Part shown: one piece after another, positions 11,478-62,232 of the stretch
Layout: the number at the start of each line of letters is the position of its first letter
Numbering within the stretch: position 1 is the stretch's first letter
Virus record (IMG/VR): IMGVR_UViG_3300031964_000008
Source: a virus
Length of the DNA: 64,000 bases
Strand: one strand, 5' to 3'
Made by a program: the position numbers and the translations under genes
The notes under the pieces: model-generated
What the model saw: the letters and a program-made list of their open reading frames with translations, nothing else
What the model was told of the DNA's origin: nothing
Database searches by the model: none

Positions 11478-11513
11478 AAGGGCTTAGTCGGGCTCCCTAT
11501 CGAATGTCAGGCA
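11478..11513 (+). repeat. upstream direct repeat, copy 1
   Basis: Shares the exact 20-mer CGGGCTCCCTATCGAATGTC with 11924-11958; lies just 5' of an SD and ATG. Confidence 0.85.
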
Positions 11514-11528
11514 TACCACGGAGTACGA

Positions 11529-11912
11529 ATGATGCAAAAATACAGGCCAGCAATTCCCACCCGATTACAGAGCATCGGCTTTGAAACCGATGTCGTAGGT
11601 CGGGCCTTTTTGTTAGCCCGAGAAGCCGGGTTACATCCGGTTACCGCATGGCTGCAGAGGGAATCCAACGAATCACGCACACTGGTGTCCGTGGTCGTGG
11701 CAAGCAAACGTTCGAAAGTTATCGCCCGGTTGATGCGAATTAATAAGTATTCAACCAGCAAATGGTGGAAGGGCGGGTTCCCCATCGAACGTAATAAGTG
11801 CGGTGTCTTGGACATAAAGGTCGTAACATTTGGTGACAACCACACAGCTTCTGTTCATAAGTACGGCAAGAATGGGTCCATCATCGTGTTCAGTAATCGT
11901 AAACACGTATAG
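11529..11912 (+). CDS. hypothetical basic protein
   Basis: GGAG SD before ATG 11529. Confidence 0.65.
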   Translation: MMQKYRPAIPTRLQSIGFETDVVGRAFLLAREAGLHPVTAWLQRESNESRTLVSVVVASKRSKVIARLMRINKYSTSKWWKGGFPIERNKCGVLDIKVVTFGDNHTASVHKYGKNGSIIVFSNRKHV

Positions 11913-11923
11913 TCTTAATTTCA

Positions 11924-11958
11924 AAGGGCTAGCCGGGCTCCCTATCGAATGTCCGGCA
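11924..11958 (+). repeat. upstream direct repeat, copy 2
   Basis: See copy 1; GCCGG...CCGGC can form a stem. Confidence 0.85.
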
Positions 11959-11976
11959 ATTGAAGAGTGCAAAAGA

Positions 11977-13380
11977 ATGGCAAAATCTAATGTTGTGCAA
12001 GATACTGATCGTAGTTCTAAACTGAAGCCAAAAGGTGGGGATGGGGACAAGCTCACACTGGACACGCAGGCTGTAAGCGATCAACAAAAGCAGGATAAGG
12101 TAAAGGCCCTTGCATTTCAGTTTCCGACCCGCAAGTCTATTGAGGCTGCGAAAAAAGCACAGGCCAAAAATCAACCAGATATTCGCATTATTGCTTGTGC
12201 TTGGTACATTCATCCCAAACGGGGGCCTGGACAGGCGCTATCAGTTCAAGACTGCGATCCTAACCATGCGTGGTTGAGTTTTCTGGATGGGAAATATCTA
12301 GTTGAGATTTCTGATCTTACTCCAGCACTTAGGTCAGATGTCAATAAGGCAGGGAGCGTCGTCAATAATAGTCAGCTTGTAGAATTTCCTGAAAAAGTTA
12401 AACTGCCGGACTTCAGGCCCGGTGATTGGTACAGTCATCCTCAATATGGTACCGGTCAAGTGGTGGAGTTTCCGTTTTCCAGTGATTTGGACATTCGCTT
12501 AAACTTTTCAGATAAGACAAGTTACGTTCTTAAAGAACACTTGAGTTTAGCCACTGATGCTGAAATTGATAAAGCCAAGATCTCTAATCTGTTGTCAAAG
12601 ACTGCTATAAAATCGACCAAGAAAACAAAGAAGAGCCGGTCTAGCGTGGACCAGACTAGTTGCACAGTCACAGTAGCCAACCAGAAACCCGTGATCAGTG
12701 ATGTCGTCTACAAAAACGGCAAGTGCGTGTCCTTGGTCCACAACGGTGTAAAGTTCGCGGTTGATATGGCAGCCAGAGACAAGTCTAGTGGAGAACTTCT
12801 TGGTCTAATTGTTGATCTTGATTTTGATCCTTATTGCGAATGGCACTCAGTTTGGGTTGACGACACTTTTGCTAAATCCGATGAAGACAATGATGCCACT
12901 GAGCATTTGATGTGTGACGTTATACCTGAATCCTGGTGGGCCTCTGGGACCTCCGTCTATCACAAAGTGTTTGGTAATGGTGTAGTAGTTGAAGCTACCC
13001 ATCCGAAAACATTGGTGACCTTGGTAGACTTTGAACAAGTGCTAACTCCTGGCTTAACGTTAGTTCCTTCCTCAGAACTTGAACTAGATGAGGACGGAGA
13101 CGAAAGTTCAGATGAGTGCGAAGCCGAAGCCGAAGAACCAACTCCGAGTCAGGCACAGGCACGCATCAAGTTTAAAGAACTAGAATTCTTCCGCCCATTC
13201 CTTCATGTTGGTTGCACCTGGATCAAGGTCGGTAACTCAACGGGTATTCGCTGCGAGGTCCGTGGTGATAGTCAAGAGCCGTTCGCTATGCTTGCGACAT
13301 TGAGTCACCCAAAGTCCACGACAGCAAAACGTCGTTTCCGTCAGACTGATTTGGTTGGTATCTACCCGTTTCCCGAATAA
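11977..13380 (+). CDS. multidomain protein with three SH3/Tudor-like (UvrD/PcrA C-terminal-like) repeats
   Basis: WYIHPKRGPG, GDWYSHPQYGTGQVVE and GTSVYHKVFGNGVVVE motifs. Confidence 0.75.
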   Translation: MAKSNVVQDTDRSSKLKPKGGDGDKLTLDTQAVSDQQKQDKVKALAFQFPTRKSIEAAKKAQAKNQPDIRIIACAWYIHPKRGPGQALSVQDCDPNHAWLSFLDGKYLVEISDLTPALRSDVNKAGSVVNNSQLVEFPEKVKLPDFRPGDWYSHPQYGTGQVVEFPFSSDLDIRLNFSDKTSYVLKEHLSLATDAEIDKAKISNLLSKTAIKSTKKTKKSRSSVDQTSCTVTVANQKPVISDVVYKNGKCVSLVHNGVKFAVDMAARDKSSGELLGLIVDLDFDPYCEWHSVWVDDTFAKSDEDNDATEHLMCDVIPESWWASGTSVYHKVFGNGVVVEATHPKTLVTLVDFEQVLTPGLTLVPSSELELDEDGDESSDECEAEAEEPTPSQAQARIKFKELEFFRPFLHVGCTWIKVGNSTGIRCEVRGDSQEPFAMLATLSHPKSTTAKRRFRQTDLVGIYPFPE

Positions 13381-41368: not shown

Positions 41369-41445
41369 AACGGCGGAGTAAATACAAATTGAATCAAACT
41401 GAACACAGAGAGTGTTCTTTTATTAACTGCAAAGGAGATTTGCAA

Positions 41446-42564
41446 ATGTCAAACATCTATGAGTATGAATTCGATATGCTTGTGTTCATTGGTCGATTTC
41501 GCCCCTTACATAATGGCCACAAGCATGTTATTGATGAAGCATTAAAGAAAGCGCGTCATGTACTGGTCTTGACGGGTTCAGCCAACCGCCCTCGTACCCG
41601 AAAGAATCCCTGGACGGCAGTTGAAGTCGAAGAGATGCTATGGCGCACGTACAAGCAGGAAATCAGAGACAGTCGCATCATCGTTCAGTTCTTAGACGAT
41701 CACATGCATGACCACGATTTCCACTGGTGTATGGATGTCCATAAGAAGGTTGCTTACGTTCAGAACAAACTTGCAGATGATGATTGGCCTATACCTAGGA
41801 CTATAGGACTGATTGGTTTCTCTAAGGACCATACCTCGTACTATCTGAAGAAATTCCCGCAGTGGGGTTCAGTCAACGTGCATGGTTACAAGGTACAACA
41901 GTTGGGTATGCCCGGCTTAGGTGTGACTCTAAATGCAACGGATCTACGCGATTCCATTCTGGCCGGTACGTGGAACTATTCACGGCAGCACGTACCTGAA
42001 CCCGTGGCGGAGTATCTTGATACTTGGATTCCACGTAACGTTGAGTTTATAGATGGTTTGCGCGATCAGCGTGACTTTGCTGCTCAGTACAAAATTGAGC
42101 ACCAGTATGCGGGCAACAAACCCTATCGTCCTATAATGACGACTACTGATTCAGTGTTCATTCAGTCATCACACGTACTGCTGGGTAAACGCAAATTGAA
42201 TCCTGGTAAAGGACTGTGGGCGCTACCAGGTGGATTTGCACACGATGACGAAGTGTTAGCTGACAGTTCATTGCGTGAATCTCACGAGGAAACACGCATT
42301 AAGTTACCGCGTTCAATGTTGGACCTGTCATTCAGGTTCAAGCACGTGTTCTCTGATCCGAATCGGTCAGATGACCGGGGACGCATCATCACGCATGCGT
42401 ATCTGTATCTACTGAACGACAATACTTCTTTACCTCTCGTAGAGGCAAACGATGATTTCGAAGAGGTCAAGTGGGTACCGCTCGGGCTACTTCAAGCGCA
42501 TGAGCTATACTCGGATCACTTCTGGATCATCCATAAGATGATTAACTTGATTCCGTGTGATTAA
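41446..42564 (+). CDS. nadM: bifunctional NMN adenylyltransferase / Nudix ADP-ribose pyrophosphatase (NadM-Nudix, NatV-like)
   Basis: IGRFRPLHNGH (HxGH), LNATDLR, KG.WALPGGF...LRESHEET, DPNRS..GRIITHAY, DHFWII. Confidence 0.95.
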   Translation: MSNIYEYEFDMLVFIGRFRPLHNGHKHVIDEALKKARHVLVLTGSANRPRTRKNPWTAVEVEEMLWRTYKQEIRDSRIIVQFLDDHMHDHDFHWCMDVHKKVAYVQNKLADDDWPIPRTIGLIGFSKDHTSYYLKKFPQWGSVNVHGYKVQQLGMPGLGVTLNATDLRDSILAGTWNYSRQHVPEPVAEYLDTWIPRNVEFIDGLRDQRDFAAQYKIEHQYAGNKPYRPIMTTTDSVFIQSSHVLLGKRKLNPGKGLWALPGGFAHDDEVLADSSLRESHEETRIKLPRSMLDLSFRFKHVFSDPNRSDDRGRIITHAYLYLLNDNTSLPLVEANDDFEEVKWVPLGLLQAHELYSDHFWIIHKMINLIPCD

Positions 42565-42646
42565 TAATTCCGTGTTCGGTCGTTTATACTAGACCAAACC
42601 CTAGGCAGAGAGCCTGGGTCTTTAAAAACTGCAAAGGAGATTTGCC

Positions 42647-44038
42647 ATGACTTACGGATTTGCTTTAGGGTCGGACAGCTACAAGTATTCGCATGGACCG
42701 CAGCTGCCCGACGATTTGAAATACGCCAGTAACTATGGTTCAGCTCGTAGTCTGAACATGTACAAGCAGGTACTGTGGTTTGGTCTCCAAAGTTGGAAGC
42801 GGAAGCTGATGAAGAATCCGCTGACAATGGAAAGTGTGGAGTACGCAAACCGTCGTATTGTCGAGCACTGCGGCATCTTTCCATACGAAGAGTTCAAGCG
42901 TATCGTTGAGGTCCATAACGGACTGCCTCCGGTTCGCATTGAAGCTCTTCCCGAGGGGTTGATTGTTCCGGTCGGTGTCCCGTGTTATCAGGTAGTAAGC
43001 ACGGACCCGTTATTGCCGACTCTTGGTTCGTTTCTTGAGACCGAGATTCTGCGTGCTGCATGGTATCAGTCTTCGGTCGCTACACTGAGCTGGCATATCA
43101 AACAGGACTTGCGTAAGTGGTTAGAGCAAACGTGCGATAATCCCGAGGAAGAGCTTGCATTTCGCTTGCATGACTTTGGGGGTCGCGGTGCCAGTTCTGA
43201 AGAATCAGCTGCGCTTGGTGGTATGTCGCATTTGATCAACTTTATGGGCACTGATACTGTCCCAGCCTTAGAGGCCGCAACCGAGTTCTACGATGAATGG
43301 ATGGCGGGGTATTCAATTCCTGCCATGGAACATTTCACCGTGACCGCATGGGGTCGTGAAAGGGAAGCCCAAGCTTACGAACGCATGATTGATGTGTATG
43401 GTGGCGAAGGCAAGAAGTACGCGTGTGTTTGCGATGCTTACGATCAACGTAACTCAGTAGATAACATCTGGGGCAAGCAGTTGAAGGATAAGGTCTTGGC
43501 GAAAGGTGGTACCGCCGTCATCCGTCTTGACTCAGGTAAGCCTATCGCAGAAGTTGTTTACGCGGTTAAGTCTATCGCTAACTCTTACGGTTTCCACACC
43601 AATAAGAAGGGTTACGATGTGGTGAACCCTGCAGCACGCATTATCCAGGGTGACGGCGTAAACCGTACATCCATTAACGGTATCTGTCACGCTTTGGAGC
43701 TTAACAAGCTCTCAATCGAGAATAACGGGTACGGTATGGGTGGTGCGCTGTTGCAAGAAGTTATGCGGGATGACTTAGGTTGGGCGCAGAAGGCTTCAGC
43801 GATTTCCGCTGATGGTGAACATTGGACGGGTATCAACAAGAGTCCGATTACTGCACCTGAGAAAGCGTCGCTGAAGGGTCGTCAGATGGTTGTATATGAC
43901 GCTACAGGCAAAATGATTGCTGTCCCGAAAGGCTCGCGTCCTGAGAGTCAGAATCTTCTGCGTGTTGTGTACGAGAATGGTGTATCGTACAACGACCAGA
44001 CCTTTGCGCAAGTCCGGGCAAATAGCAATCTGAAGTAA
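42647..44038 (+). CDS. nadV: nicotinamide phosphoribosyltransferase (NAMPT)
   Basis: DSYKYSH, LHDFGGRG, GTDT, SIPAMEH, VIRLDSG, IIQGDG, GMGGALLQ, KASLKGR. Confidence 0.96.
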   Translation: MTYGFALGSDSYKYSHGPQLPDDLKYASNYGSARSLNMYKQVLWFGLQSWKRKLMKNPLTMESVEYANRRIVEHCGIFPYEEFKRIVEVHNGLPPVRIEALPEGLIVPVGVPCYQVVSTDPLLPTLGSFLETEILRAAWYQSSVATLSWHIKQDLRKWLEQTCDNPEEELAFRLHDFGGRGASSEESAALGGMSHLINFMGTDTVPALEAATEFYDEWMAGYSIPAMEHFTVTAWGREREAQAYERMIDVYGGEGKKYACVCDAYDQRNSVDNIWGKQLKDKVLAKGGTAVIRLDSGKPIAEVVYAVKSIANSYGFHTNKKGYDVVNPAARIIQGDGVNRTSINGICHALELNKLSIENNGYGMGGALLQEVMRDDLGWAQKASAISADGEHWTGINKSPITAPEKASLKGRQMVVYDATGKMIAVPKGSRPESQNLLRVVYENGVSYNDQTFAQVRANSNLK

Positions 44039-48960: not shown

Positions 48961-49203
48961 ATGGAAACTAGTATTCAGGATCGGGTCATCAACATCGTAG
49001 CTGAACAGCTAGGACTAGCTATCTATGAAGTTCTTCCAACCTCAAACTTCGTCAATGACTTGGGTATCGACAGCCTAGACGAGCTCGAACTTTTGATAGC
49101 TATTGAGGATGAATTCGAACTAGAGGTCAATAACGAGGAGGCAGAAAAGTTCAGTAATGTTCAAGAGGTTATCGACTACGTAACTGCGAATATTCAATCT
49201 TAG
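48961..49203 (+). CDS. acpP: acyl carrier protein
   Basis: IQDRV..IVAEQLG...FVNDLGIDSLD..EL..AIEDEF..E...EEAEK...VQ.VIDYV; Ser at 49072. Confidence 0.92.
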   Translation: METSIQDRVINIVAEQLGLAIYEVLPTSNFVNDLGIDSLDELELLIAIEDEFELEVNNEEAEKFSNVQEVIDYVTANIQS

Positions 49204-49265
49204 TCTTATAACCAGCAGCAAGAAAGTTAGAGTACCAATCACCCTTCCCAACAAGAGAAACAAAG

Positions 49266-50162
49266 ATGACAAACATTAATAGCATGGATCTGAAAACCTA
49301 TCACCACGTCGTTGGCTCGTCGGCCAATGAATTCCAGGCCACCGGTCTGTCTTTCGGCCAGTATTTCCCCTGGTGCATTGTCCGCATGAACACAATGTAC
49401 ACGCTGCCAATCAACGAAAGCCCGACGATCAAGGACGAATACCTGAACGAGCCCCCGGAAGCCAGACTTCAAAAGTTTCTTGGTGTACTTAGCGATGAGA
49501 TCAGCGAGGGTCATGAAATTCTAGCCCTGATGCAGGCCCGTCGTGCATCACATGAAAATGTGGACATCACCGAGCAAGACGTAACTAATTTGGCGACCAG
49601 CAACGGCGTGTCGGCGAAACGTGCTAAGGCCACGGCAGAGACATTCATGAAAGCCTACCTGCATGACAAGAGCACAGGCTTCCAATTCAATGACGATGGC
49701 ACCACAGAAGTCGAGCGCCAGATACTTGTAGCCTTGGGCGATTGGCTCGGTGACATGGTAGTCTACATCCGCAGCGAAAGTCTGAAGTATGGTATTCCTT
49801 TGGAGTCTATGCTGGCCTGTATTATGGGTTCGAACTTTACCAAGCTCGACGAGAACGGGTTGCCTATCAAGAACGAGGCAACAGGCAAAGTCGAGAAAGG
49901 TCCGAATTTCATGCCACCCGAACAGCATATTTATGCCACCTTGTTCGGTACCCAAGAACTGATTACTGAATACGAAGGTGTGTCACAGTTGGTTAATGAT
50001 TTCTCTGTTATCGGTGAAGAATTGCTGTGTAACCCGATGACCGACATTCTTCATGCCGAAGGACTAGATACTGACGAAGATGAAGATGACGAAGCTGCGG
50101 ATGAAGACTATGACGAAGAAGAGGAACTTAAGGTTTGGTCGAAAACGTTGATAAATGAATAA
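49266..50162 (+). CDS. MazG-like/all-alpha NTP pyrophosphohydrolase (DR2231-like)
   Basis: LGD.LGD..VY...YGI.L......SNFTKL...G.PI.....GKV.KGPNF.PP; acidic tail. Confidence 0.85.
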   Translation: MTNINSMDLKTYHHVVGSSANEFQATGLSFGQYFPWCIVRMNTMYTLPINESPTIKDEYLNEPPEARLQKFLGVLSDEISEGHEILALMQARRASHENVDITEQDVTNLATSNGVSAKRAKATAETFMKAYLHDKSTGFQFNDDGTTEVERQILVALGDWLGDMVVYIRSESLKYGIPLESMLACIMGSNFTKLDENGLPIKNEATGKVEKGPNFMPPEQHIYATLFGTQELITEYEGVSQLVNDFSVIGEELLCNPMTDILHAEGLDTDEDEDDEAADEDYDEEEELKVWSKTLINE

Positions 50163-50186
50163 CTCTTAATTATTGTGTGGTAAAGG

Positions 50187-50222
50187 AGGGTGGAACTAAA
50201 AATTCCACCCTTTTTCTTTTTT
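50187..50222 (+). terminator. intrinsic terminator
   Basis: AGGGTGGAA / TTCCACCCT stem followed by a long U-tract. Confidence 0.8.
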
Positions 50223-50276
50223 ATCTCGGGTTCGCAATTTTAGAATAACTAGTTTGGTTGCGCGCTCCCCTGTATT

Positions 50277-50531
50277 TTGGAAGCTAAATACAACAAGTAT
50301 AAGCCTAGGCTTGACCTAATTTCCTGGTTAGAACTCAGGAACCTGAGCTGGATCGAGTGCGGACCTGCGGAGAATAGTGGTTATGTTGACTACATGGGTT
50401 GCATCTACATTGATGTTCCTTTTGATATCGATAATTCAGATTACACCTTGTTAGCTGAGCGTCTAGAAAATAAAGATGGTACGCCGAAAAATCGCAACGT
50501 TCGTTTTCTATATTGTGCGTATAAAGATTAA
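50277..50531 (+). CDS. hypothetical protein, possibly a 5'-truncated fragment
   Basis: WIECGP...Y.G.IYIDVPFD pattern; TTG start with no clear SD. Confidence 0.45.
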   Translation: MEAKYNKYKPRLDLISWLELRNLSWIECGPAENSGYVDYMGCIYIDVPFDIDNSDYTLLAERLENKDGTPKNRNVRFLYCAYKD

Positions 50532-50566
50532 TCAGCGATTTTACTAAGTTGATTGGAGTCTCAACA

Positions 50567-51004
50567 ATGCCCAATAACATAATTAAACATGACGTAAAAC
50601 AAGGCAAAGGTAGCAAGAAAAGTCTTGAACATAAATGGAAGGACGCTGAGGATAAGGCCAAGAAAAGCAGCGGCAAGAAAGAGCCCTATGCTTTGACTAA
50701 TTATATTTATCACAAAATGACAGGTAGCACTAAAGTTGAAGCAGCCTTACGCCTAGTCGCGGTCTCCAAGATGGAAGCAGATGCTTTCGAGGGTTGGGTA
50801 AATACACTGCAGTATGCGTATGAACGTCCGGACAACGAGGACTTCGTGATCGTTGACGCGCCGTTAAAAGACGTTGAGGCCAAGCTTTATGCAAACGACT
50901 GGGCAAAGGCTAGGTCCGCCGAGGTCAATCATTTCAGTAAAGGTGAGCACGAAGTAGAATTAGAGGACATAGGAAATAAAACAAAAATTATCAGCGTTGC
51001 GTGA
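50567..51004 (+). CDS. two-domain hypothetical protein with internal AALRL motif
   Basis: GGAG SD before ATG 50567. Confidence 0.75.
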   Translation: MPNNIIKHDVKQGKGSKKSLEHKWKDAEDKAKKSSGKKEPYALTNYIYHKMTGSTKVEAALRLVAVSKMEADAFEGWVNTLQYAYERPDNEDFVIVDAPLKDVEAKLYANDWAKARSAEVNHFSKGEHEVELEDIGNKTKIISVA

Positions 51005-51035
51005 GCTGAAAGTGAAAGTGCTTAAAAGGATTGAT

Positions 51036-52484
51036 ATGAAGGTTCAAATACACGCTGCACAACGACTGCTGGAGGATCAACACGAAAAACTAGCAACTCA
51101 CAGAGGACATATCCTGGTCCTAGGCTTCGGTGGTGTTGGTCAATCGATTCTCCCCGTAATTCTACGTCACCTCGATGTAAGTCCTAGCGCGGTAGTCGTT
51201 CTGGATAAAGAGGTACGCCCTGAATTTGCTAAATACGAAGATTTGGGTGTAACTTACGTTCATCGTGAAATCGTCAAATCTAATTTGGTGCCAACACTAA
51301 ATGAATTATTGAGTCCCGGTGACTTACTGATTAACGTAAGCTTGAACATAGACGGACTAGAAATCGTTGAGTGGTGCCTACAAAATAATGTGCTCTACAT
51401 TGACACGTCTATCGAACGTTGGGCTACTGAACCCGACGAAATCATTCCGGAACTGGGTGAACGCACGCTCTACACAACGCATCAAGAAATGCGAAGAATG
51501 GCCTCGGCCTATCCTGGGGCCTCTACCTGTGTGGTGACGCATGGAGCTAATCCAGGTCTAGTTTCGCATTTTGTTAAAGCGGCGTTGCTCAAACTCGCAA
51601 AAGATACAGGTCTGAAAACAGGGACCCCTGAGTCCCAAGAGCAATGGGGAATGCTAGCTGAAGCCCTGAATGTGAAAATAATTCAAACGGCTGAGCGCGA
51701 TACACAAATTCTGAAAGAACCCAAGCGTGTTAATGAATTCGTCAACACCTGGAGCTGTGAAGGGTTCTGGGCTGAGGGTCGAGCACCAGCAGAAATGGGG
51801 TGGGGCACGCACGAAAAAGAGATTCCTGCTGACGGTAAAGAACTCGCTGGTGGCTCTGTGCTCTATCTAGAGCAACCGGGTGTGGAGACCACGGTTAAGT
51901 CGTGGGTACCTTTGGGCGGTACATTCAACGGCTATTTGATTCAGCACTCGGAAGCCATCACTATCAGCGAATACTTTAGTACAGAGAATTATCGACCGAC
52001 CTGTTACTATGCGTATCAACCGTGTGATGCTGCAATTGCGTCTGTCCATGAAATGAAGGGACAAGAATTGTGGATGCACAGAAAGACCCGAATTGCTAAA
52101 AATAGTATTCAGAGCGGAATCGATGAACTAGGGGTCTTGCTTCTAGGTCATGAACGGAATGCCCTGTGGTACGGATCGCAACTTTCTATCGAAGAATCAC
52201 GGGAACTGGTAGAAGGGCAAAACGCAACAACATTGCAGGTAGTGGGTTCAATGTTAGGTGCTATTGTTTGGATGCTGGACAATCCTAATCAAGGTTATTG
52301 CGAACCAGAGGACCTACCATTTGAATTCGTGTTAAACATCGCTTCGCCCTTCCTTGGGCCTATTGCTGCGGTCTACAGCGATTGGACGCCCCTAGCCCAT
52401 GCAAATCGTGAACTGTATGACGACGAGCACGACGACTCAGATGTGTGGGCCTTTTCTAATTTTCGAACTGACAGTGGACTATAA
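51036..52484 (+). CDS. hss: homospermidine synthase with N-terminal AAQRL leader
   Basis: Rossmann LGFGGVG, YIDT..E.W, HGANPG.VS.FVK, FVNTWSCEGF..EG..PAE.GWG, H.EA..I, GIDELGVLL, NAT.LQV. Confidence 0.95.
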   Translation: MKVQIHAAQRLLEDQHEKLATHRGHILVLGFGGVGQSILPVILRHLDVSPSAVVVLDKEVRPEFAKYEDLGVTYVHREIVKSNLVPTLNELLSPGDLLINVSLNIDGLEIVEWCLQNNVLYIDTSIERWATEPDEIIPELGERTLYTTHQEMRRMASAYPGASTCVVTHGANPGLVSHFVKAALLKLAKDTGLKTGTPESQEQWGMLAEALNVKIIQTAERDTQILKEPKRVNEFVNTWSCEGFWAEGRAPAEMGWGTHEKEIPADGKELAGGSVLYLEQPGVETTVKSWVPLGGTFNGYLIQHSEAITISEYFSTENYRPTCYYAYQPCDAAIASVHEMKGQELWMHRKTRIAKNSIQSGIDELGVLLLGHERNALWYGSQLSIEESRELVEGQNATTLQVVGSMLGAIVWMLDNPNQGYCEPEDLPFEFVLNIASPFLGPIAAVYSDWTPLAHANRELYDDEHDDSDVWAFSNFRTDSGL

Positions 52485-52485
52485 A

Positions 52486-53061
52486 ATGATAAAAGCAGCG
52501 TCACGACTTATTGCTATAGAGGCGTCTAAGGATAAAGAGAATTGGGGACCCGGCATCAGAGGATATCACCAAGCAGTCGGAGCCTTAGTACTGGCCCTAG
52601 ACACCGGTAACTTTAGTTTCCAGCTACGTGGTCCTCATTCTGATACACCGAATTGCTACGGAACGTGGGGTGGCTCCGTTGACGGCGCAGAAGACTTGGT
52701 CAATGCCCTACGCCGGGAACTCAGAGAAGAGACCGGCTATAACGGTGAGTGGTCTGTAATGCCGCTCAAGGTATCCAGAAATGGAAAAGGCTTTGAGTAC
52801 CACACTTATTTTGTTACTGTCCCCAAGCAGTTCGTAGTCAACCCAGAATCAGAATTCAGGTCAGAATCGACGGCTGCTATTTGGACAGCTTTCAATCAAT
52901 GGCCTCAGCCAATGCATCCAGGACTTAAAGCGGTACTGGATGATCCACATGTGCAATTCGTGTTGGAGCAAGCCTTGAAACGTAGAGCACAGAATTTAAG
53001 CACGGGTGTCAAAGTCAATGCAGCATCCAGATTGGTTAACTCCGAACTTTCGATCCGCTAG
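52486..53061 (+). CDS. Nudix hydrolase flanked by AASRL motifs at both ends
   Basis: Full Nudix box GSVDGAEDLVNALRRELREETGY. Confidence 0.92.
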   Translation: MIKAASRLIAIEASKDKENWGPGIRGYHQAVGALVLALDTGNFSFQLRGPHSDTPNCYGTWGGSVDGAEDLVNALRRELREETGYNGEWSVMPLKVSRNGKGFEYHTYFVTVPKQFVVNPESEFRSESTAAIWTAFNQWPQPMHPGLKAVLDDPHVQFVLEQALKRRAQNLSTGVKVNAASRLVNSELSIR

Positions 53062-53067
53062 TAAATA
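53058..53067 (+). promoter_or_regulatory. putative late promoter CTAGTAAATA
   Basis: Exact motif overlapping the Nudix stop. Confidence 0.55.
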
Positions 53068-53094
53068 GGGTTCATACAACAACTAAATACAATA

Positions 53095-53556
53095 ATGACT
53101 CAGCCTCTAGACGATGACAAAATGTACATGGACTTTGCTAAACGTGCAGCCGAACGAAGTCATGCTCAACGACTTCAAGTAGGCTGCGTAATTGTGAAGG
53201 ATGACTCTGTGGTGTCCTATGGTTGGAACGGCATGCCCCAGGGTTACGACAATACATGTGAACATTCGGTACTGTCAGGATCCGATGTAGGTAACAGCTA
53301 TGTAATGCATTTCGGTTTGAAGACCAACGATGAGGTCAGTCACGCTGAAATGAATGCTTGTGCAAAGTTAGCAGCATCTACGGTAAGCGCTGTTGGTGCC
53401 ACGCTTTATTGTACGCACGCACCCTGTATTGAGTGCGCGAAACTAATTCAAAGAACAGGTATTGCCGAGGTTGTCTTTGCCGATTACTATAGAGACAACA
53501 AAGGTTTGGCGTTGCTCAACAAACGTGGTATTAGAACTAGCCTTTTGATGTACTAA
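53095..53556 (+). CDS. dCMP deaminase
   Basis: VGCVIV, GWNG.P.G..N.C, HAEMNA, PCIECAK. Confidence 0.93.
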   Translation: MTQPLDDDKMYMDFAKRAAERSHAQRLQVGCVIVKDDSVVSYGWNGMPQGYDNTCEHSVLSGSDVGNSYVMHFGLKTNDEVSHAEMNACAKLAASTVSAVGATLYCTHAPCIECAKLIQRTGIAEVVFADYYRDNKGLALLNKRGIRTSLLMY

Positions 53557-53907
53557 ATGAAAAACATGAATTCCAATCCAAATCCCCAGGGCAATACCGA
53601 TCATGTGTTCCACAAGAATCGTGTGTTCACAACCAATGACGCATGGCTAGCTATCAAAGAAAGTGTTGGGGTCTACGAGCTACCTAAAGGTTGGGAACGT
53701 ATTTACGCTGGACGTAGCCTAACTATTGTTAATCCCAAACGATCCTTCATTTTCAAGGTAACGGTCAACCAAGAGCTGTATGTTGACCGGAAAATAAATG
53801 GTGTGTTCCATAGCGAGCACCATCTATGCAAGTCGAATAAAGAACTGACTGACCTAGCAGTCCAAATACTGGATATGGCTGTTCCGAAAGTTCAGAATTT
53901 GCAGTAA
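53557..53907 (+). CDS. hypothetical protein
   Basis: Abuts the upstream stop. Confidence 0.6.
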   Translation: MKNMNSNPNPQGNTDHVFHKNRVFTTNDAWLAIKESVGVYELPKGWERIYAGRSLTIVNPKRSFIFKVTVNQELYVDRKINGVFHSEHHLCKSNKELTDLAVQILDMAVPKVQNLQ

Positions 53908-54016: not shown

Positions 54017-54277
54017 ATGCTTACATTGAAACTTATGACAGGTGCGGCTATGGCTGACTCAGATGCCGCACACGATTTTATGTTGATTCAAATTAATGAC
54101 GATGAGGAGCTTTCTTTCGAGAGACGTCCGCGTATAGGTGACGATAATAATTCAAGCCCTGTCTTTGCTGTTATCAAAAAGTATGGTGATGACACAGGTA
54201 AGGAATACTGGCTGCAAGGAAATGCCTACGTATTGAATGCGCAAGGTAAAACAATTGCCAGTCGTGCATCATACTAA
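54017..54277 (+). CDS. hypothetical protein
   Basis: AGGA SD; AYVLNAQGKTI C-terminal motif. Confidence 0.75.
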   Translation: MLTLKLMTGAAMADSDAAHDFMLIQINDDEELSFERRPRIGDDNNSSPVFAVIKKYGDDTGKEYWLQGNAYVLNAQGKTIASRASY

Positions 54278-54306
54278 GCTCAGTTTTCAATTAAAGTTTT
54301 AGCATA

Positions 54307-54340
54307 AAAGGCGCAAATTCTTCATCGGGTTTGCGCCTTT
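54307..54340. terminator. 11-bp hairpin, possibly bidirectional
   Basis: AAAGGCGCAAA / TTTGCGCCTTT. Confidence 0.65.
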
Positions 54341-54421
54341 ATTATTAAACCCTCAAATTTAATAGTAACTGGGAGTGAGAGCCAAATCCCACACCAACTA
54401 AAGTTTGAGTGAGGTGATAAA

Positions 54422-55698: not shown

Positions 55699-56988
55699 AT
55701 GATCATGGCTACCAATGCAGCCCAGAGATTGAAAGCAAGCACGACTAAAGATAAAACAGGTAACGTTAAAACGTCAAAAAATAAACCAAGAACTCAAGTC
55801 AAGGCAGCTGCTCGTATTTGTGCCTTGGAGCTACCTAAGTTCCGATATATTGACGATGTTGCTCGATTTCTTGACCAGACGGGAAGCACGGTTAAAGAAT
55901 TAAGTCAGCTAAGTGGAGTCCAGCAGCAACAACTAGCAAAATTAAATCAGGCACAAATCCACACTCATCCCTGCCTAGTTAAGGCCAGCGGCTTGAGTCT
56001 AGACGGCGAGACTCAAACTGATCCTGATCATGAGTCCTTGAAGACCTTGGTTCCCAAAATTGAACAGCTGAATACGCAATATGTATTGTCAGAAGACTTG
56101 TACGAGAAATACAGGGCTTTAGAGGCCCTAGAAACGCAGTTGGCTATACAGTTCACGGATAAGCGGGGCGAGCCTTACACGAAGGCCTACGGACTGTTAA
56201 AAGCACTGAAGGACAAGATTGGCTTTCAGTTAAAAAACGTTTTAGAATTCTTGAGCAGCGTGGCCTCACACTACGTACCTAAAGTGTTTCAGAGCTACGT
56301 ATCGACATTAGTCCAAGAGCTTCAAGAGCACGTTATATTCGAGCACAAGGAACAGTTTTTGTACGTCAGTGTCAAAGACGGAGCCCTAATCTTTACGGAT
56401 TACATCTTGCTAAAGAACGTAAAGAATGATGACCTACAGGTAACGCCCCATCTCTACATCAGCCTTCAATGGACTGTGAACCAAGGAATTCAAATTCAGG
56501 TTAATCATGAATTTGACTTACCCAATCTGTTACTAGTTGATGGCGGTTCCGAGGTTAGTTCATTGAACGAAGCCTTAGTGGTGATAGACAAACTTTTGGA
56601 ACAAGAGAACTTCAGTACTAGCCTAGCTGCTATTCCACTGTCTACCAGAATGAAGAATGATCCTTCCAAGTTCAGTGCTTCTATGTTTAACTACTGTGAT
56701 TATATAAAGAAAGTTGACGTTGATGCTAAATGTATATCTTTTAGACTCAAAGCGAATACTACTGTCGAACAGATAGACGAAATTAAGTATCCGCTTTATC
56801 TTGAGGTCAAACGTTTGTTTGCCAATAGTCCGGTCGTAAAACTTAGAGTGAAGATTGGTGCGAAATTCATATCGTTTGAACCTCTAACCTCGGGTATTAA
56901 ATCGGCGGTCATTCCTCATGACGCTGAGGTTTTGGGTTCCAAATTTGGATTCACGGGCCTCCAGATAGCTAAACTATTGCAGTTCTAA
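55699..56988 (+). CDS. hypothetical (probable virion) protein with two AAxR[LI] motifs
   Basis: NAAQRL and KAAARI; AAGGA SD. Confidence 0.7.
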   Translation: MIMATNAAQRLKASTTKDKTGNVKTSKNKPRTQVKAAARICALELPKFRYIDDVARFLDQTGSTVKELSQLSGVQQQQLAKLNQAQIHTHPCLVKASGLSLDGETQTDPDHESLKTLVPKIEQLNTQYVLSEDLYEKYRALEALETQLAIQFTDKRGEPYTKAYGLLKALKDKIGFQLKNVLEFLSSVASHYVPKVFQSYVSTLVQELQEHVIFEHKEQFLYVSVKDGALIFTDYILLKNVKNDDLQVTPHLYISLQWTVNQGIQIQVNHEFDLPNLLLVDGGSEVSSLNEALVVIDKLLEQENFSTSLAAIPLSTRMKNDPSKFSASMFNYCDYIKKVDVDAKCISFRLKANTTVEQIDEIKYPLYLEVKRLFANSPVVKLRVKIGAKFISFEPLTSGIKSAVIPHDAEVLGSKFGFTGLQIAKLLQF

Positions 56989-57008
56989 TTAATCTAATAA
57001 GGCGAGCT

Positions 57009-57779
57009 ATGGAAGGCTTAACTAAAGTTTATGCAGCATCAAGACTGCTGGCCCTCCGTACATTTGAAGGCCCTAATTACGATCATGATGCTGTTATCAA
57101 AGAATGGCTAAGGGTTCAGGCGAAAGGTGAATTACGGATAGTCGAAACAGATAGACCTAATATTTGGCTGACCGTAGCTAGCTTTAATTATAGTTTCTAT
57201 ATTTTTATCCATGACGATTTACTTGATGCTTATCCTCAAGATTCTTTAGTGGGGTTGGTGACTTTTAATAGCATTGGTGCCACACAGTTCAATGGTAAAA
57301 CCATGGAGTTGAAAAGTGCCCTGGGCAACAAGCTATACACGCCTCATGCTGAGATTAATCCCGATCATCAGAAGCAGAAAATAGTATCAAGTATCTATTC
57401 ATGGTTTCTTGAAGCCGGTAATTGTCTGATGACCGGTGACTCACATTCTAGAGCCGCCAACCTGTTGTGGAGGAACCTAGCTTCAGTGTTCCCTACATAT
57501 CTTATTGACCTGATGGGTCTCGAAATATTGTCACCAAAGACTAGAGAAAGAATAGCTAAGTCACATTTGATACGACTTTTGATGCTGGGAACCTCTTTTA
57601 GTTTTGAAGACTTAAAGGACCTCGGTTCTTCAGTTAGTGCCAAACTAGTTGACGAACCTGGGTTCGGTACCACGACAGAGGATTTAAATTCAGAGCCTGA
57701 TTTGTTTGGGGACCACCCTACACGAACAGGTATGGGCGTCAATAATATAATGCTCCCAAGTACACCCGTTCAAGGATAA
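57009..57779 (+). CDS. GNAT-like fold protein with AASRL leader
   Basis: INPDHQKQKIVSSIY and GDSHSRAANLLW patterns. Confidence 0.55.
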   Translation: MEGLTKVYAASRLLALRTFEGPNYDHDAVIKEWLRVQAKGELRIVETDRPNIWLTVASFNYSFYIFIHDDLLDAYPQDSLVGLVTFNSIGATQFNGKTMELKSALGNKLYTPHAEINPDHQKQKIVSSIYSWFLEAGNCLMTGDSHSRAANLLWRNLASVFPTYLIDLMGLEILSPKTRERIAKSHLIRLLMLGTSFSFEDLKDLGSSVSAKLVDEPGFGTTTEDLNSEPDLFGDHPTRTGMGVNNIMLPSTPVQG

Positions 57780-57782
57780 ATC

Positions 57783-59315
57783 ATGGCCGTACCTTATGTT
57801 TATTTTAAGACACCAACAACAGATATAGCCGTTATTGCTGATGTAACCTCAATGTTGATTGGGGCTGAGACAATCACCAGCATCGTTGTAGGTACAGCCA
57901 GTCCCGTCACTAGCACTCCTTTGTCAGCAACAGTCACGACAGGCACTAGCTCGGTAATTGGATTAACGATTACGGGCGGCAATGACGGACTTAGTTATGG
58001 CTTTCAGTTAACAATTACTACTAATGCTCGTGTATTCATCGTCACTGTCGCCACATCAGTTTCACAAGCAGAATTTATTCCTTACACCACTGAAAATCCA
58101 GATGCGTTCCAAGACTTAGTAGACGAAATAGAAGCCGGTAAAGCAGCCGTCGGAACATCCGTATTTGCGTTTCCCCCGCAAATAGACCCTTCCGGTGGTT
58201 TTGTTACCTGGGAATTTCTAGCCTCAGACGGTACTGTTTATGCCGCAGGTAATGCTTTCGACTACACTGTGCAATCAAATGGGTTGGCCAATACTGTAGT
58301 TGCCAAATCTATTATTACGGTGCCCGTTACAGTCCCACCATCATTAGATGGACAAGCCTATCAATTAAGATATACGCTAAGTCTAAGTCAAGAGTATGGA
58401 ACACCACCTGATCCCACAGCAGGGAACCTAGGCCAGAACGTATTTTTTCAATTCGAGAACGTTCGGGTGGTGGGGTTGAACACAGTTCCATTGGGTACCC
58501 AACCATCAGTCGAGCTCCAGGGTGTACCAGCTACTGTTTCAATTGTGTTGGACACGCTATATGATAATGTGACAGTCGAATTATGGGCTGGACCCACTCA
58601 AGTAGTGGCCCCGACCCAGATTCAAGCCTATGAAAGAACTGCTAATGGTTGGTACTTTGCTGGTGTATTAGATACCTCGGGATTAGGCGTATCCCTAGTT
58701 CCCTACCAAATAATTTGGAAATACTGGGCATCAACTAATACGGGAATCATCAATCAGGAAAATGCTGATTTCTTTGTTGTTAATCCGTCGATCATGAGTG
58801 CGGTCAATGACGTTAAAGCCAAGATTAATAAGGCACGGACTACGCTTTATGGAACACCTGATATGTTGTTCCCTGCTTCAACTATTTTAACCTGGCTACG
58901 CCGTGGTGGTGACGCATTCAATATCGCTTATGGACAGTTTACTAATTTCACGTTCACAAATGCACTGGGTGGTATTCGTGAATTTTGGTTACTATGCAGT
59001 GAAGCTGCCGCCTTAGCCAGTGCTTATCTTTCGGAGGCTGAGAAATCCTTTAATTTTCAAGGTGCAGCAATTAGTTTAGACGTAGATAGAACTCAATATT
59101 TAGAGGCTGCTGCAACTGCTATTCAAACCCGATTAGATAACGAATTGAAGCTGATCAAAACCAATCTTATTATCAAGGGAAATACTTCAGGTGATGGATC
59201 GGTCAACGCTGGTCAACTTCAACACGGAGCAATCGGTGCCGTAGGAATTACGATTACGCAGGCCTCAATGTGGGGAGCTTATGCTCCAGGATACTTTGGA
59301 AATCGTGGAATTTAA
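57783..59315 (+). CDS. probable structural (neck/head-tail joining-like) protein
   Basis: T/V/S-rich beta domains; C-terminal FNFQG...LDVDRT segment; context. Confidence 0.55.
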   Translation: MAVPYVYFKTPTTDIAVIADVTSMLIGAETITSIVVGTASPVTSTPLSATVTTGTSSVIGLTITGGNDGLSYGFQLTITTNARVFIVTVATSVSQAEFIPYTTENPDAFQDLVDEIEAGKAAVGTSVFAFPPQIDPSGGFVTWEFLASDGTVYAAGNAFDYTVQSNGLANTVVAKSIITVPVTVPPSLDGQAYQLRYTLSLSQEYGTPPDPTAGNLGQNVFFQFENVRVVGLNTVPLGTQPSVELQGVPATVSIVLDTLYDNVTVELWAGPTQVVAPTQIQAYERTANGWYFAGVLDTSGLGVSLVPYQIIWKYWASTNTGIINQENADFFVVNPSIMSAVNDVKAKINKARTTLYGTPDMLFPASTILTWLRRGGDAFNIAYGQFTNFTFTNALGGIREFWLLCSEAAALASAYLSEAEKSFNFQGAAISLDVDRTQYLEAAATAIQTRLDNELKLIKTNLIIKGNTSGDGSVNAGQLQHGAIGAVGITITQASMWGAYAPGYFGNRGI

Positions 59316-59318
59316 ACT

Positions 59319-59615
59319 ATGAAAACAAATGCACGTCAGCGAATACTGGCCTCAACTACTACGGTTTATGCCGGTGAGGACCTAGAAAAAGAAGGTGGGT
59401 TCAAACTTAAACTGGGCACCAATATTTTCAGATGCAGTTCACCTAAAGATGCTTATGAAAAGGCCGCACGTTTTATTCATAACTTAGAGATCGCAGGTTT
59501 TAGCTACGCAAAGAAGGCATCCGAAGTTGACGGCCTGGACACGTACACCAAAGCCAATCATGAAATCTCTATTGGGGTCCACGGTGGAAACCTGAACTTA
59601 AGTTACTGGCACTAA
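59319..59615 (+). CDS. small protein with ARQRI leader
   Basis: MKTNARQRILAS. Confidence 0.7.
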   Translation: MKTNARQRILASTTTVYAGEDLEKEGGFKLKLGTNIFRCSSPKDAYEKAARFIHNLEIAGFSYAKKASEVDGLDTYTKANHEISIGVHGGNLNLSYWH

Positions 59616-59704
59616 TTTAATAGTAATAGTCTCACAATCACAGTCACAAGCATTCAAAAAATAAACCCATAGTAGATGTAGGTCTAGGCTCACGGAGCTC
59701 ACTC

Positions 59705-60139
59705 ATGTTTAATACCGTACTTTCGTTCATTGTTCAAAATCCCATGGCCTTTGTCCTGTTGGCAATAGTGGTCATTGCCCTAATACTTTTATGGGTAGTA
59801 CAACGAACTAAAGATAATTTAGACCTACGGTCATTAATCGTTGATGAGCAAACCAAGCAACCTTCTATTCATAAACTAGGGCAACTCACGGCTCTAGTCA
59901 TGAGTACTTGGCTCTTGGTGTATTTAGCGCTACAAAATCGAATGGACAGTGTGTACTTCACTACGTACATGGGGATATGGACAGCCGCCCAGGCCATCAA
60001 TCAATGGACGACTAGTCGAGGACGCACGGACTTCAGCTACGGTAGCAACCAAATCCCGGCTAATTCTAATGTGGGTGGAGTGGGAATGGGTGGACCCCAG
60101 GATAATTCAGTTACACCAGCTGGAAATCCACCGCAATAG
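59705..60139 (+). CDS. multi-TM membrane protein, holin-like
   Basis: Two to three hydrophobic helices; GGAG SD. Confidence 0.55.
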   Translation: MFNTVLSFIVQNPMAFVLLAIVVIALILLWVVQRTKDNLDLRSLIVDEQTKQPSIHKLGQLTALVMSTWLLVYLALQNRMDSVYFTTYMGIWTAAQAINQWTTSRGRTDFSYGSNQIPANSNVGGVGMGGPQDNSVTPAGNPPQ

Positions 60140-60175
60140 AATTTATGAGTCAGTTTTGAACTATAAGGATAATTA

Positions 60176-60523
60176 ATGTACGTGCATGCAGCTCAGAGAC
60201 TGAAAGCTATAGAAGATGAAGAACAAAAAGTAGAGGCTCAAATTCACGAAGGTAAAGGTGATGAGCTTCGTAAAATACAGGCCGAGTTGCGCAAGCACGG
60301 CTTAATTTATAAATTCGTACACCCACATTTGATGTTCCACAAGAGCAATCCAGAGGATGTTGGACGTGAGGCCGAAGCCTCTGTTGAAGTTTTGAACCGT
60401 TTAAAGTACGCCATGAATGCAAGCCCTGGAATATTCAAAAGGGTTTCGTTCGCGGTTAAGGGTAACGACGGCGTATGCTTGCAGCGCGTGCAGGTAGCGT
60501 TAAGAATTTTCTTTTCCATTTGA
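60176..60523 (+). CDS. small protein with AAQRL leader
   Basis: AAGGA SD; MYVHAAQRLKAIE. Confidence 0.7.
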   Translation: MYVHAAQRLKAIEDEEQKVEAQIHEGKGDELRKIQAELRKHGLIYKFVHPHLMFHKSNPEDVGREAEASVEVLNRLKYAMNASPGIFKRVSFAVKGNDGVCLQRVQVALRIFFSI

Positions 60524-60531
60524 GGCTAACA

Positions 60532-61020
60532 ATGACTACTGTAAATTACACGAATGCTAAAGCGGCCTTGGTTGCTGCTGGACTACCAACCAGCGCTGGC
60601 TCCAATTGGGAAGGAATTGACCAAGCATCCTACGATAAGTTCGCTGCAGCTGCTACCTACAAAGGTGGTGTTGCATACAGCAAGTATCAAACTAATTACG
60701 GGTTTGCTTATCCATCGATCATGCCTGTATCCGTGTTGGACGCTGTAGAGATCGATGACTATCATGCAACGTTGGCCGGTACTCCATTGACTGGTGCCCA
60801 TGCATCTACACCTGTTACATGGACCCTGACCGAGACCGGAGCTACAGGTACTTCGTATTCTTGGCACCTGGGTGACGGTTCATCCCCGCAGGTTACCACA
60901 GTACCTCACCTGACTTATACCTATAGTGCGGCCGGTACGTTTACAGCTTCGGTGGTCCCGACTGTTGGCGGTAACCAGGTGCCCGCAATTTCCGCTACGG
61001 CTCCGGCTATTCTATCGTAA
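60532..61020 (+). CDS. PKD (Ig-like) domain virion decoration protein
   Basis: YSWHLGDG......H..TY.Y...GTF.AS; GAGG SD. Confidence 0.8.
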   Translation: MTTVNYTNAKAALVAAGLPTSAGSNWEGIDQASYDKFAAAATYKGGVAYSKYQTNYGFAYPSIMPVSVLDAVEIDDYHATLAGTPLTGAHASTPVTWTLTETGATGTSYSWHLGDGSSPQVTTVPHLTYTYSAAGTFTASVVPTVGGNQVPAISATAPAILS

Positions 61021-61033
61021 ATAGGAATTAATT

Positions 61034-61360
61034 ATGCTGGCGCGCAGATCACGACCAAGAGCCCGAAATGTGCATGGCGTAGCCAGCATAAAAAGAGACA
61101 GTTATTCGACGGTCAATGGGTTCACCCAGAACAATTCTTGGTGGGAACTCAGAGCCAAGGCCTATGCTAGGGATAAAGGTGTGTGCCAGGCCTTAATTAG
61201 GGGCACCCGTTGTTTAAAGCCTGGATCTGAGGTTCACCACATACAGCCGTTAAACGCTGGTGGCACCAATAATTTATCTAACTTAATTCTTTTGTGCCAG
61301 GCCTGTCACGACCGTAGGCACCCACATTTAGTTAGAGCAGCACAATTAAAGAAAAGATGA
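61034..61360 (+). CDS. HNH endonuclease
   Basis: W..LR....RD...CQ...C...EVHHI.PL..GG.N..SNL..LC..CH...H. Confidence 0.9.
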   Translation: MLARRSRPRARNVHGVASIKRDSYSTVNGFTQNNSWWELRAKAYARDKGVCQALIRGTRCLKPGSEVHHIQPLNAGGTNNLSNLILLCQACHDRRHPHLVRAAQLKKR

Positions 61361-61388
61361 ACCAACATTAGCTTCTGAAAAGGTAATT

Positions 61389-61769
61389 ATGACCATGATC
61401 ACAGCAGCCCTACGCCTATTGGCAGACGCCGATGAGAAAGGCACCAACATAGAGGCAGGTCCCGAGGACGTGGAAAACGTGCTGACCATTCTAAAAAGAA
61501 TTCTAGGCATTCATTTTCTGCTGGATGATAGATCGTCTACCAACCAGTCTTTGATCTGGCGCACTTCCGAGTATCAAGCGGTCTTGAACTTCAGTACGGT
61601 TGATGAGGACTTAAACTTTTATTTCAAGGCCTCTAAATACAAGTACGAATTAAAGGCCGAAGGCTCGGATGATCAAAGCTTACTGGCTTCAATCGGAAAA
61701 GCAGCAACGGAAGTAAATAAAAAGGTACCTGGACTAGACGAAGTCCTGTCCCAATTGCGTGCCCTATAG
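61389..61769 (+). CDS. small protein with AALRL leader
   Basis: AAGG SD; MITAALRLLADA. Confidence 0.7.
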   Translation: MTMITAALRLLADADEKGTNIEAGPEDVENVLTILKRILGIHFLLDDRSSTNQSLIWRTSEYQAVLNFSTVDEDLNFYFKASKYKYELKAEGSDDQSLLASIGKAATEVNKKVPGLDEVLSQLRAL

Positions 61770-62232
61770 AGAGAAACCTGTCATGGATAATCAAAAACTT
61801 GTAAGCCTAATTGCTTTGTTTCTTCAGATCAATCCTGAACCGTCTGATGCTCAGTTCCACGCGCTGGCTGAGTCCGTTGGTGTTGATCATGAAAGTTTAG
61901 AATCAATTGCTTATGCCATGTTGGCCGACACCAACGAAATTGAACAAGAAGTAGTGGCTGAAATAGTTCAACCACCCCAGACAGAGAGCGAAGAAGTGCT
62001 GGACGGCGAGTACGATCCGAACACAACTAGCGTTGAAGACTTGGTGTTAAATGACGGGGCACCAGCGGGAACTACTAGCCAGCAAGCATTGCAGGATTCA
62101 ACATTAAATGACGGTGTTGGCATCAACGATGTGGGGACCGGAATTGACGGTGACAAAGATGCAATGATTAGTGACGGCGTTGCACCCATGCAACTCAAAG
62201 CCGCTTTACGTCTGACTGAAAGTGCGGGTTAA
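61759..62232 (+). CDS. acidic protein with C-terminal AALRL motif
   Basis: MQLKAALRLTESAG*; start may be ATG 61783. Confidence 0.7.
   Translation: MPYREKPVMDNQKLVSLIALFLQINPEPSDAQFHALAESVGVDHESLESIAYAMLADTNEIEQEVVAEIVQPPQTESEEVLDGEYDPNTTSVEDLVLNDGAPAGTTSQQALQDSTLNDGVGINDVGTGIDGDKDAMISDGVAPMQLKAALRLTESAG

Follow-up and report, generated by a model that had tools for sequence, protein, structure and literature searches.

We describe a homospermidine synthase (HSS) gene and its neighbors in a 64,000-nt window of viral DNA (IMGVR_UViG_3300031964_000008). The window spans bases 1048-65047 of one 96,856-bp IMG/VR virus contig (G000), and coordinates refer to the window unless stated otherwise. CheckV places the contig at about 41% of a complete genome, and nearly all of its genes are on the plus strand. 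The region has no megablast match in 50,697 phage records, and its relatives appear only at the protein level. The contig is collinear throughout with the Ralstonia jumbo phage phiRSL1, following approximately 0-5 kb and then 32-95 kb of the phiRSL1 genome; the matching genes include those for NAD salvage, the major head protein (77% identity), the head maturation protease, the tail sheath and tube, and replication. The GC content is 45% for the contig and 58% for phiRSL1. The locus is a phiRSL1-type HSS operon, in an arrangement already known from phiRSL1. All five genes named in the initial annotation, which encode an acyl carrier protein (ACP), a MazG-like nucleoside triphosphate (NTP) pyrophosphohydrolase, HSS, a Nudix hydrolase and dCMP deaminase (dCD), are present on the plus strand. 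In Table 1, we list them with the adjacent features and with a distant phiRSL1 gene cluster discussed below.

Table 1. Features of the HSS region, in window coordinates, and of the putative phiRSL1 modification cluster. Numbers after family and structure identifiers are E values.
Feature	Position	Strand	Evidence
ACP, 80 aa	48961-49203	+	PF00550 1.9e-12; phrog_5934 2.8e-17; NCBIfam ACP models up to 1.4e-25; DSL attachment motif
MazG-like all-alpha NTP pyrophosphohydrolase candidate, 298 aa, acidic C-terminal tail	49266-50162	+	phrog_671 9.3e-13; PDB 3NL9 1.6e-5
Intrinsic terminator closing unit A	50183-50215	+	13-bp stem, 5 GC pairs, T-run
o84, 84-aa open reading frame (ORF), opens the HSS transcription unit	50277-50531	+	ORF list
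o151, 151-aa protein, phiRSL1 ORF112 orthologue	50549-51004	+	N-terminal half basic; internal AALRL motif at residue 65
HSS, 482 aa from ATG 51036	51036-52484	+	PF03435 3.2e-22; PF16653 2.2e-26; PDB 2PH5 8e-119
Nudix hydrolase, 191 aa	52486-53061	+	PF00293 1.4e-8; phrog_1198 2.2e-20; AAxRL motifs at both termini
dCD, 153 aa, phiRSL1 ORF113 orthologue	53095-53556	+	PF00383 2.5e-24; phrog_174 1.3e-47
o116, 116-aa ORF, weak phiRSL1 ORF114 orthologue	53557-53907	+	29% identity, E 8e-7
o86, 86-aa ORF	54017-54277	+	phrog_10337
Terminator-like hairpin after o86	~54305-54345		read from sequence
Head-tail connector/portal-type protein	57783-59315	+	phrog_17327 1.6e-81; 57% identity to phiRSL1 ORF118
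Putative phiRSL1 modification cluster, ORF230-238 (also L076:4900-13400)	AB366653.2, 162.4-171.5 kb (L066:12402-21498)	-	
phiRSL1 ORF230, divergent thymidylate synthase (TS) family, annotated dUMP hydroxymethyltransferase			PF00303 3.9e-22
phiRSL1 ORF231, 5-hmdU DNA kinase (5-HMUDK)			PF18723 2.5e-39
phiRSL1 ORF232, sulfotransferase			
phiRSL1 ORF233, ORF234 and ORF237, TET-associated glycosyltransferases (TAGT)			best 3.5e-55
phiRSL1 cluster, two nucleotidyltransferase-like proteins			
phiRSL1 ORF238, APS kinase			

The initial annotation had drawn the five genes together as one 4.6-kb cluster. The genes are there, but the terminator listed in Table 1 splits them into two transcription units. 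Unit A holds ACP, its first gene, and the MazG-like gene; unit B runs o84-o151-HSS-Nudix-dCD-o116-o86, such that o84 and o151 intervene between the MazG-like gene and HSS. We find no match for o84 in Pfam, PHROG or NCBIfam. Two start codons are revised. The HSS reading frame spans 50997-52484 and its likelier start is the ATG at 51036, preceded by an AAAGGA Shine-Dalgarno sequence; the Nudix frame opens at 52399, and its corrected start is the ATG at 52486, 1 nt past the HSS stop. The dCD stop overlaps the o116 start (TAAATG). The middle genes of unit B are, as read from the DNA, translationally coupled. The virion module begins immediately downstream of the HSS operon, with the connector/portal-type protein. 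The 10-mer CTAGTAAATA, which occurs 13 times with at most one mismatch (4 expected) and almost exclusively on the plus strand, is probably a phage promoter element. It lies frequently 25-40 nt 5' of a start codon; its plus-strand sites in the window are 658, 1307, 16201, 19178, 48929 and 53058, the last two being 32 nt before ACP and 37 nt before dCD.

The HSS is a genuine bacterial-type homospermidine synthase (EC 2.5.1.44) and is almost certainly active. It has both saccharopine-dehydrogenase (Sacchrp_dh) domains, the NADP-binding N-terminal one (PF03435) and the C-terminal one (PF16653), and it matches every solved bacterial HSS structure over its full length with E values from 8e-119 to 1e-107 (2PH5, 8e-119, residues 19-478; 4PLP, 9e-111). 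To compare active sites, we count residues through the alignment to the Blastochloris viridis enzyme (BvHSS, 4PLP), for which the chain index is the native number plus 2. The substrate-binding and catalytic residues listed for BvHSS (Krossa et al., PMC4725965), namely N162, E210, W229, E237, H296, E298, Y323 and D361, are identical in the phage protein in eight cases out of eight, and so are Glu117, Glu232 and Tyr325. Asp94 and Tyr123, in the outer ionic slide and loop of BvHSS, differ in the phage HSS, and they also differ in the Legionella enzyme. The Rossmann GxGxxG motif is present as GFGGVGQ. An assayed relative is the product of phiRSL1 hss (ORF110), 57.7% identical, which Li et al. 2023 (PMC9992855) cite as biochemically functional, and it is from this orthology that we infer activity. 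As a separate observation, an NAD+ salvage pair (an NMN adenylyltransferase/Nudix protein and a nicotinamide/nicotinate phosphoribosyltransferase; 41389-44038) precedes the NAD+-dependent HSS by 7 kb, and both genes have phiRSL1 orthologues (ORF104 and ORF106).

The other enzymes of the locus are identified with different degrees of certainty. In dCD, the zinc-binding and catalytic motifs HAE and PCxxC are intact (SHAEMNA and APCIEC). The Nudix hydrolase has an intact Nudix box of the form GX5EX7REUXEEXGU (GSVDGAEDLVNALRRELREETGY). Clues to its substrate amount to weak similarity to NUDT18 and NudG, and the ESM Atlas gives only generic viral Nudix clusters. The MazG-like assignment is the weakest of the five, because this protein has no match in Pfam, nor has it any in NCBIfam. 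By sequence, residues 145-225 match PDB 3NL9, a "putative NTP pyrophosphohydrolase". The AlphaFold2 model, built from an alignment of two sequences, is all-helical with a low-confidence pLDDT of 57; its best Foldseek match is again 3NL9, at a non-significant E value of 0.2.

The grouping of these genes recurs in relatives. In phiRSL1, we find orthologues of the MazG-like protein (ORF107, 45% identity), the Nudix hydrolase (ORF109, 47%), o151 (ORF112, 41%) and dCD (ORF113, 51%). A second relative, the 119-kb contig G001, groups the MazG-like gene (42% identical), HSS, Nudix and o151, and it has no dCD gene within those 119 kb. The o151 protein, 41-45% identical to the phiRSL1 and G001 homologues, adjoins HSS in all three phages. 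MazG-like, Nudix, HSS and dCD are linked more than chance would allow: phiRSL1 keeps them together at amino-acid identities of 45-58%, and G001 keeps part of the group. ACP does not belong to this module: tblastn finds no match for it in the syntenic region of phiRSL1, whose own ACP is 16 kb away, and the terminator separates it from the HSS operon. The likeness to phiRSL1 extends to orthologues at 41-58% identity, the same type of HSS, Nudix and dCD within 3 kb of hss, and a virion module next to them. Several details differ. The phiRSL1 order is Nudix-HSS-ORF111-ORF112-dCD, in contrast to o84-o151-HSS-Nudix-dCD here; phiRSL1 has a topoisomerase IB gene between MazG and Nudix, which is absent here; ACP is inserted upstream here, unlike in phiRSL1; and an AAxRL leader peptide heads HSS here and in G001 but not in phiRSL1. 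We also observe solute-binding genes near hss in other phages: a TRAP-type solute receptor gene in phiRSL1, 7 kb upstream of hss (ORF101, L064:1051-2001), and a solute-binding-protein gene directly upstream of hss in Achromobacter phage Motura (L002:7004-10814). These may encode polyamine-binding proteins. No solute-binding or receptor homologue is found on the 96.8-kb contig.

Linkage of HSS to nucleotide genes is not confined to this lineage. Scanning IMG/VR, we collect 60 HSS-encoding loci. Apart from G001 and phiRSL1, the HSS proteins that are 49-58% identical to this one belong to T4-like phages (about 45 contigs, recognized by PolB, primase, SegE and PhoH), and their neighbors are the large and small subunits of ribonucleotide reductase (nrdA/nrdB), ThyX, dCMP deaminase, primase, PolB or PhoH. 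In some of these loci HSS lies between the two reductase subunit genes (L009, L011, L046, L048, L050; ~7700-13000), in other contigs it adjoins ThyX, and in about 13-15 the order is dCMP deaminase - phrog_10499 - HSS (L012, L023, L028, L038; ~7500-11400). A quick maximum-likelihood tree places 40 T4-like HSS in one clade (SH-aLRT 97) and groups the phiRSL1-like trio (89). We considered a single dCD-HSS cassette common to both groups; the tree separates them, a weak rejection given that it holds no bacterial sequences. The presence of HSS within the DNA-precursor module of no fewer than two phage lineages is most simply explained if it shares its timing with DNA synthesis and not its chemistry; the linkage to nucleotide genes looks like general module organization.

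The initial annotation had proposed that homospermidine is either a DNA counter-ion made in the head or the substrate of an undescribed base modification, and it remarked that the window lacks the hydroxymethylase, kinase and transferase required for the latter. The rest of the contig lacks them as well: searches of the whole 96.8 kb for the TS family, ThyX, 5-HMUDK and gsp are all negative, on a contig that covers about 41% of the genome and does not include the part where phiRSL1 keeps its hydroxymethylase and kinase genes. A genome search with the 5-HMUDK family PF18723 finds phiRSL1 (1.3e-40), the positive control PhiW-14, and G002 (4e-40), another IMG/VR contig that carries a hydroxymethylase/kinase cluster; it finds none on G000 or G001. 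The G002 kinase and hydroxymethylase are 64% and 53% identical to those of phiRSL1. We considered whether G002 is a missing part of the phage described here, and the comparison does not support a common origin; the GC content is the same (45.8% in G002), but the two contigs have no sequence overlap and a tetranucleotide correlation of 0.68, compared with 0.85 between the two halves of G000. In phiRSL1, ORF230 is the only TS-family gene, it is located beside 5-HMUDK, and there is no ThyX or other thymidylate synthase in the genome; for these reasons the phiRSL1 dCD most plausibly feeds ORF230. It is very probable, to judge from these genes, that phages of the phiRSL1 lineage replace or modify their thymidine, and dCD plausibly, and the MazG-like protein perhaps, would suit the nucleotide-level steps of such a pathway.

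Whether homospermidine takes part in that modification is a different matter. In the Delftia phage PhiW-14, gp109 is a putrescine:DNA transferase that joins free putrescine to activated DNA (PMC8989533), and it matches the Pfam family ADDT (PF18724), the amino acid/polyamine:DNA transferases, equivalent to aGPT-PPlase. A new hypermodified thymidine of the PhiW-14 kind could then be made by attaching homospermidine, or putrescine by way of HSS, to 5-phosphomethyl-dU through an unrecognized transferase. Such a route would draw on the TS-family dUMP hydroxymethylase and 5-hmdU DNA kinase that the lineage has and on the gp109 precedent with a free polyamine (PMC8989533), and it would agree with the presence in both phiRSL1 and PhiW-14 of glutathionylspermidine-synthase homologues and dCMP deaminase. 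Of the enzymes that the initial annotation named as worth seeking, the hydroxymethylase and the 5-hmdU kinase do turn up in the relatives phiRSL1 and G002, but aGPT-PPlase turns up in neither. No ADDT match appears in the complete phiRSL1 genome, even at an E value of 0.1, or in G001 or G002, and tblastn with gp109 finds nothing in these three or in G000. Both searches recover their positive controls, PhiW-14 and the 5-HMUDK contigs G007 and G008 in the case of ADDT, and a third 5-HMUDK contig in the case of tblastn. In phiRSL1, hss is about 100 kb from the modification cluster, and the three TAGT, sulfotransferase, APS kinase and nucleotidyltransferases of that cluster suggest that any adduct is a sugar or a sulfate. 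Three complete HSS-bearing genomes, G003 (235.8 kb), G004 (160 kb) and Motura, have no 5-HMUDK, so HSS and thymidine hypermodification are separable, and in T4-like phages HSS also sits by nucleotide genes. A role for homospermidine as a DNA adduct is unlikely, and we regard the specific route through an unrecognized transferase as highly improbable. The phiRSL1 ORF230-238 cluster may instead specify a glycosyl- or sulfo-type thymidine hypermodification that appears to be undescribed; in the literature searched, we find no account of the cluster, of a DNA adduct in phiRSL1, or of sulfotransferases in thymidine hypermodification.

The counter-ion alternative in the initial annotation leaned on the AAxRL leader of HSS. 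The leader is indeed present; the HSS N-terminus reads MKVQIHAAQRLL. Amongst the plus-strand proteins of the contig, AAxRL occurs 15 times when 0.69 are expected from residue shuffles, and 10 of the occurrences are N-terminal (0.11 expected). The Arg and Leu codons vary, which rules out an origin of the motif at the DNA or RNA level and identifies the signal as one in the peptide. The motif also heads the Nudix hydrolase (MIKAASRLIA, with a second copy toward the C-terminal end) and some ten small proteins whose genes surround those for the connector and tail. In G001, HSS retains the leader (MIKTQAAWRLLA) and Nudix has a looser form; in phiRSL1, the looser form is found on Nudix ORF109 (MKINSAFRLL), ORF120 and ORF124. 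The leader commonly extends to A-A-x-R-L-x-A followed by T, S or D (window 55699-62232; L085:15722-19839), a pattern similar to the L-x-A|S sites that assemblin-type maturation proteases prefer. A gene for a head maturation protease is present on the contig (phrog_18299, 8.4e-83; L085:5171-6076), and so we have a terminal peptide common to several unrelated proteins in a phage with such a protease. Given that protease and the virion module directly after the HSS operon, capsid targeting or cleavage is a fair hypothesis, and the leader is compatible with capsid loading, though only compatible.

Under that hypothesis AAxRL would be a capsid-targeting or maturation-cleavage signal, and HSS and Nudix would enter the procapsid, to be delivered to the next host with the DNA or to work at the head, or inside it, while DNA is packaged. 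The excess of leaders, their peptide-level nature, and their retention on the G001 HSS, on both the G001 and the phiRSL1 Nudix proteins and on a number of small proteins of the connector region argue for it, as do the protease and the adjoining virion module. The phiRSL1 HSS, however, has no leader. Small cations pass through capsids, so loading a head with polyamine needs no synthesis inside it, and HSS requires putrescine as well as bound NAD+. The motif also occurs at internal and C-terminal positions, which would equally fit a protease site or some other docking motif. We consider capsid loading possible but distinctly the less expected outcome. A more elaborate version would have HSS and Nudix as AAxRL-addressed cargo that couples homospermidine supply, or enzyme delivery, to the packaging of DNA with an undescribed, probably anionic (phospho-, glycosyl- or sulfo-) thymidine derived from 5-hmdU and produced by the hydroxymethylase/5-HMUDK/TAGT/sulfotransferase cluster. 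We find this version improbable; if true, the extra negative charge of the modified DNA would explain why the lineage has its own triamine synthase. On the contig we also observe two genes without a phiRSL1 counterpart at their place, an HNH endonuclease gene immediately 3' of the major head protein gene (L085:10192-11232) and a DNA methyltransferase gene (phrog_56, 7e-55; L085:17566-18468) between the tail tube gene and that of a 441-aa leader-bearing protein.

Taken as a whole, we favor, with reasonable though not high confidence, an explanation in which the block is conserved auxiliary metabolism of a phiRSL1-like jumbo myovirus and its product is free homospermidine. During infection, the NAD+-dependent HSS would condense two molecules of host putrescine into sym-homospermidine, and the larger pool of free triamine would serve the replication, condensation and packaging of genomes of about 230 kb, and translation; free homospermidine probably acts as a counter-ion or a growth factor, as far as the gene content can tell. 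HSS would be co-transcribed and translationally coupled with Nudix and dCD in the way that phages group the metabolic genes of their DNA-synthesis phase, a habit that would also place HSS between nrdA and nrdB, or by dCD and ThyX, in T4-like phages. The dCD, and probably the MazG-like protein, would have a separate job, supplying dUMP and clearing competing dNTPs for a hydroxymethylase/5-hmdU-kinase pathway encoded elsewhere. Some observations weigh against this explanation. A plain cytoplasmic enzyme should have no need of the leader, and its conservation on the HSS of two phages suggests a role tied to a particular location; the adjacency of HSS and Nudix, kept despite the inverted order in phiRSL1 and here, hints at a functional tie tighter than shared timing. 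The contig holds about 41% of the genome, so any hydroxymethylase, kinase or transferase of the phage itself would lie beyond what it covers. Baumann is said to have found in 2007 that the polyamines of PBCV-1 virions neutralize a tiny share of the DNA charge, so a counter-ion role is not a given.

The same enzyme could also act on the host. HSS might drain putrescine, or swap in an analogue that escapes host acetyltransferases or polyamine-sensing responses, as part of host takeover or counter-defense. Evasion of N-acetylation is the advantage of homospermidine that Li et al. propose for eukaryotic viruses (PMC9992855), and in Motura and phiRSL1 gss homologues are linked to hss or share its genome. 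But nothing in the window points to defense, the contig has neither gss nor an acetyltransferase, and a biosynthetic role agrees better with the recurrent setting by DNA-precursor genes; we give this possibility little credence. On the question of why viruses encode polyamine synthases, this locus offers three testable handles. First, hss stays in an operon with Nudix and dCD throughout a diverged lineage of jumbo phages, of which phiRSL1 is available in culture. Second, the leader on HSS in two members predicts its presence in the virion. Third, the 5-hmdU kinase cluster with glycosyl- and sulfotransferases raises the possibility of a new modified base in the DNA of phiRSL1.

Compared with known systems, the AAxRL leader recalls phage T4, where the capsid-targeting sequence MKTYQEFIAE / LxE is found on internal proteins and on Alt. 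In both cases a short N-terminal peptide is common to unrelated proteins, enzymes included, of a phage with a head maturation protease. The AAxRL-x-A sequence is unrelated to that of T4 and also occurs at C-terminal and internal positions. The PhiW-14 pathway, which belongs with those of SP10, M6 and ViI to the thymidine hypermodification systems that start from 5-hmdU, proceeds through dUMP hydroxymethylase, 5-HMUDK (gp37) and the putrescine:DNA transferase gp109 to alpha-putrescinylthymidine. The phiRSL1 lineage likewise encodes both a hydroxymethylase and a 5-hmdU DNA kinase, and both phages carry dCD and a gsp homologue; unlike PhiW-14, phiRSL1 and G002 have no ADDT, the neighbors of their kinase gene encode TAGT, a sulfotransferase and an APS kinase, and none of these genes is on the contig of the window. 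A further likeness is to the viruses that encode a bacterial-type HSS as an auxiliary metabolic gene, often by DNA-precursor genes: T4-like phages, Motura, the chlorovirus PBCV-1 and Imitervirales (PMC9992855). Amongst these, the T4-like HSS proteins have an equally long N-terminal segment but without AAxRL, Motura links hss to gss, and PBCV-1 encodes the entire route from arginine to homospermidine.

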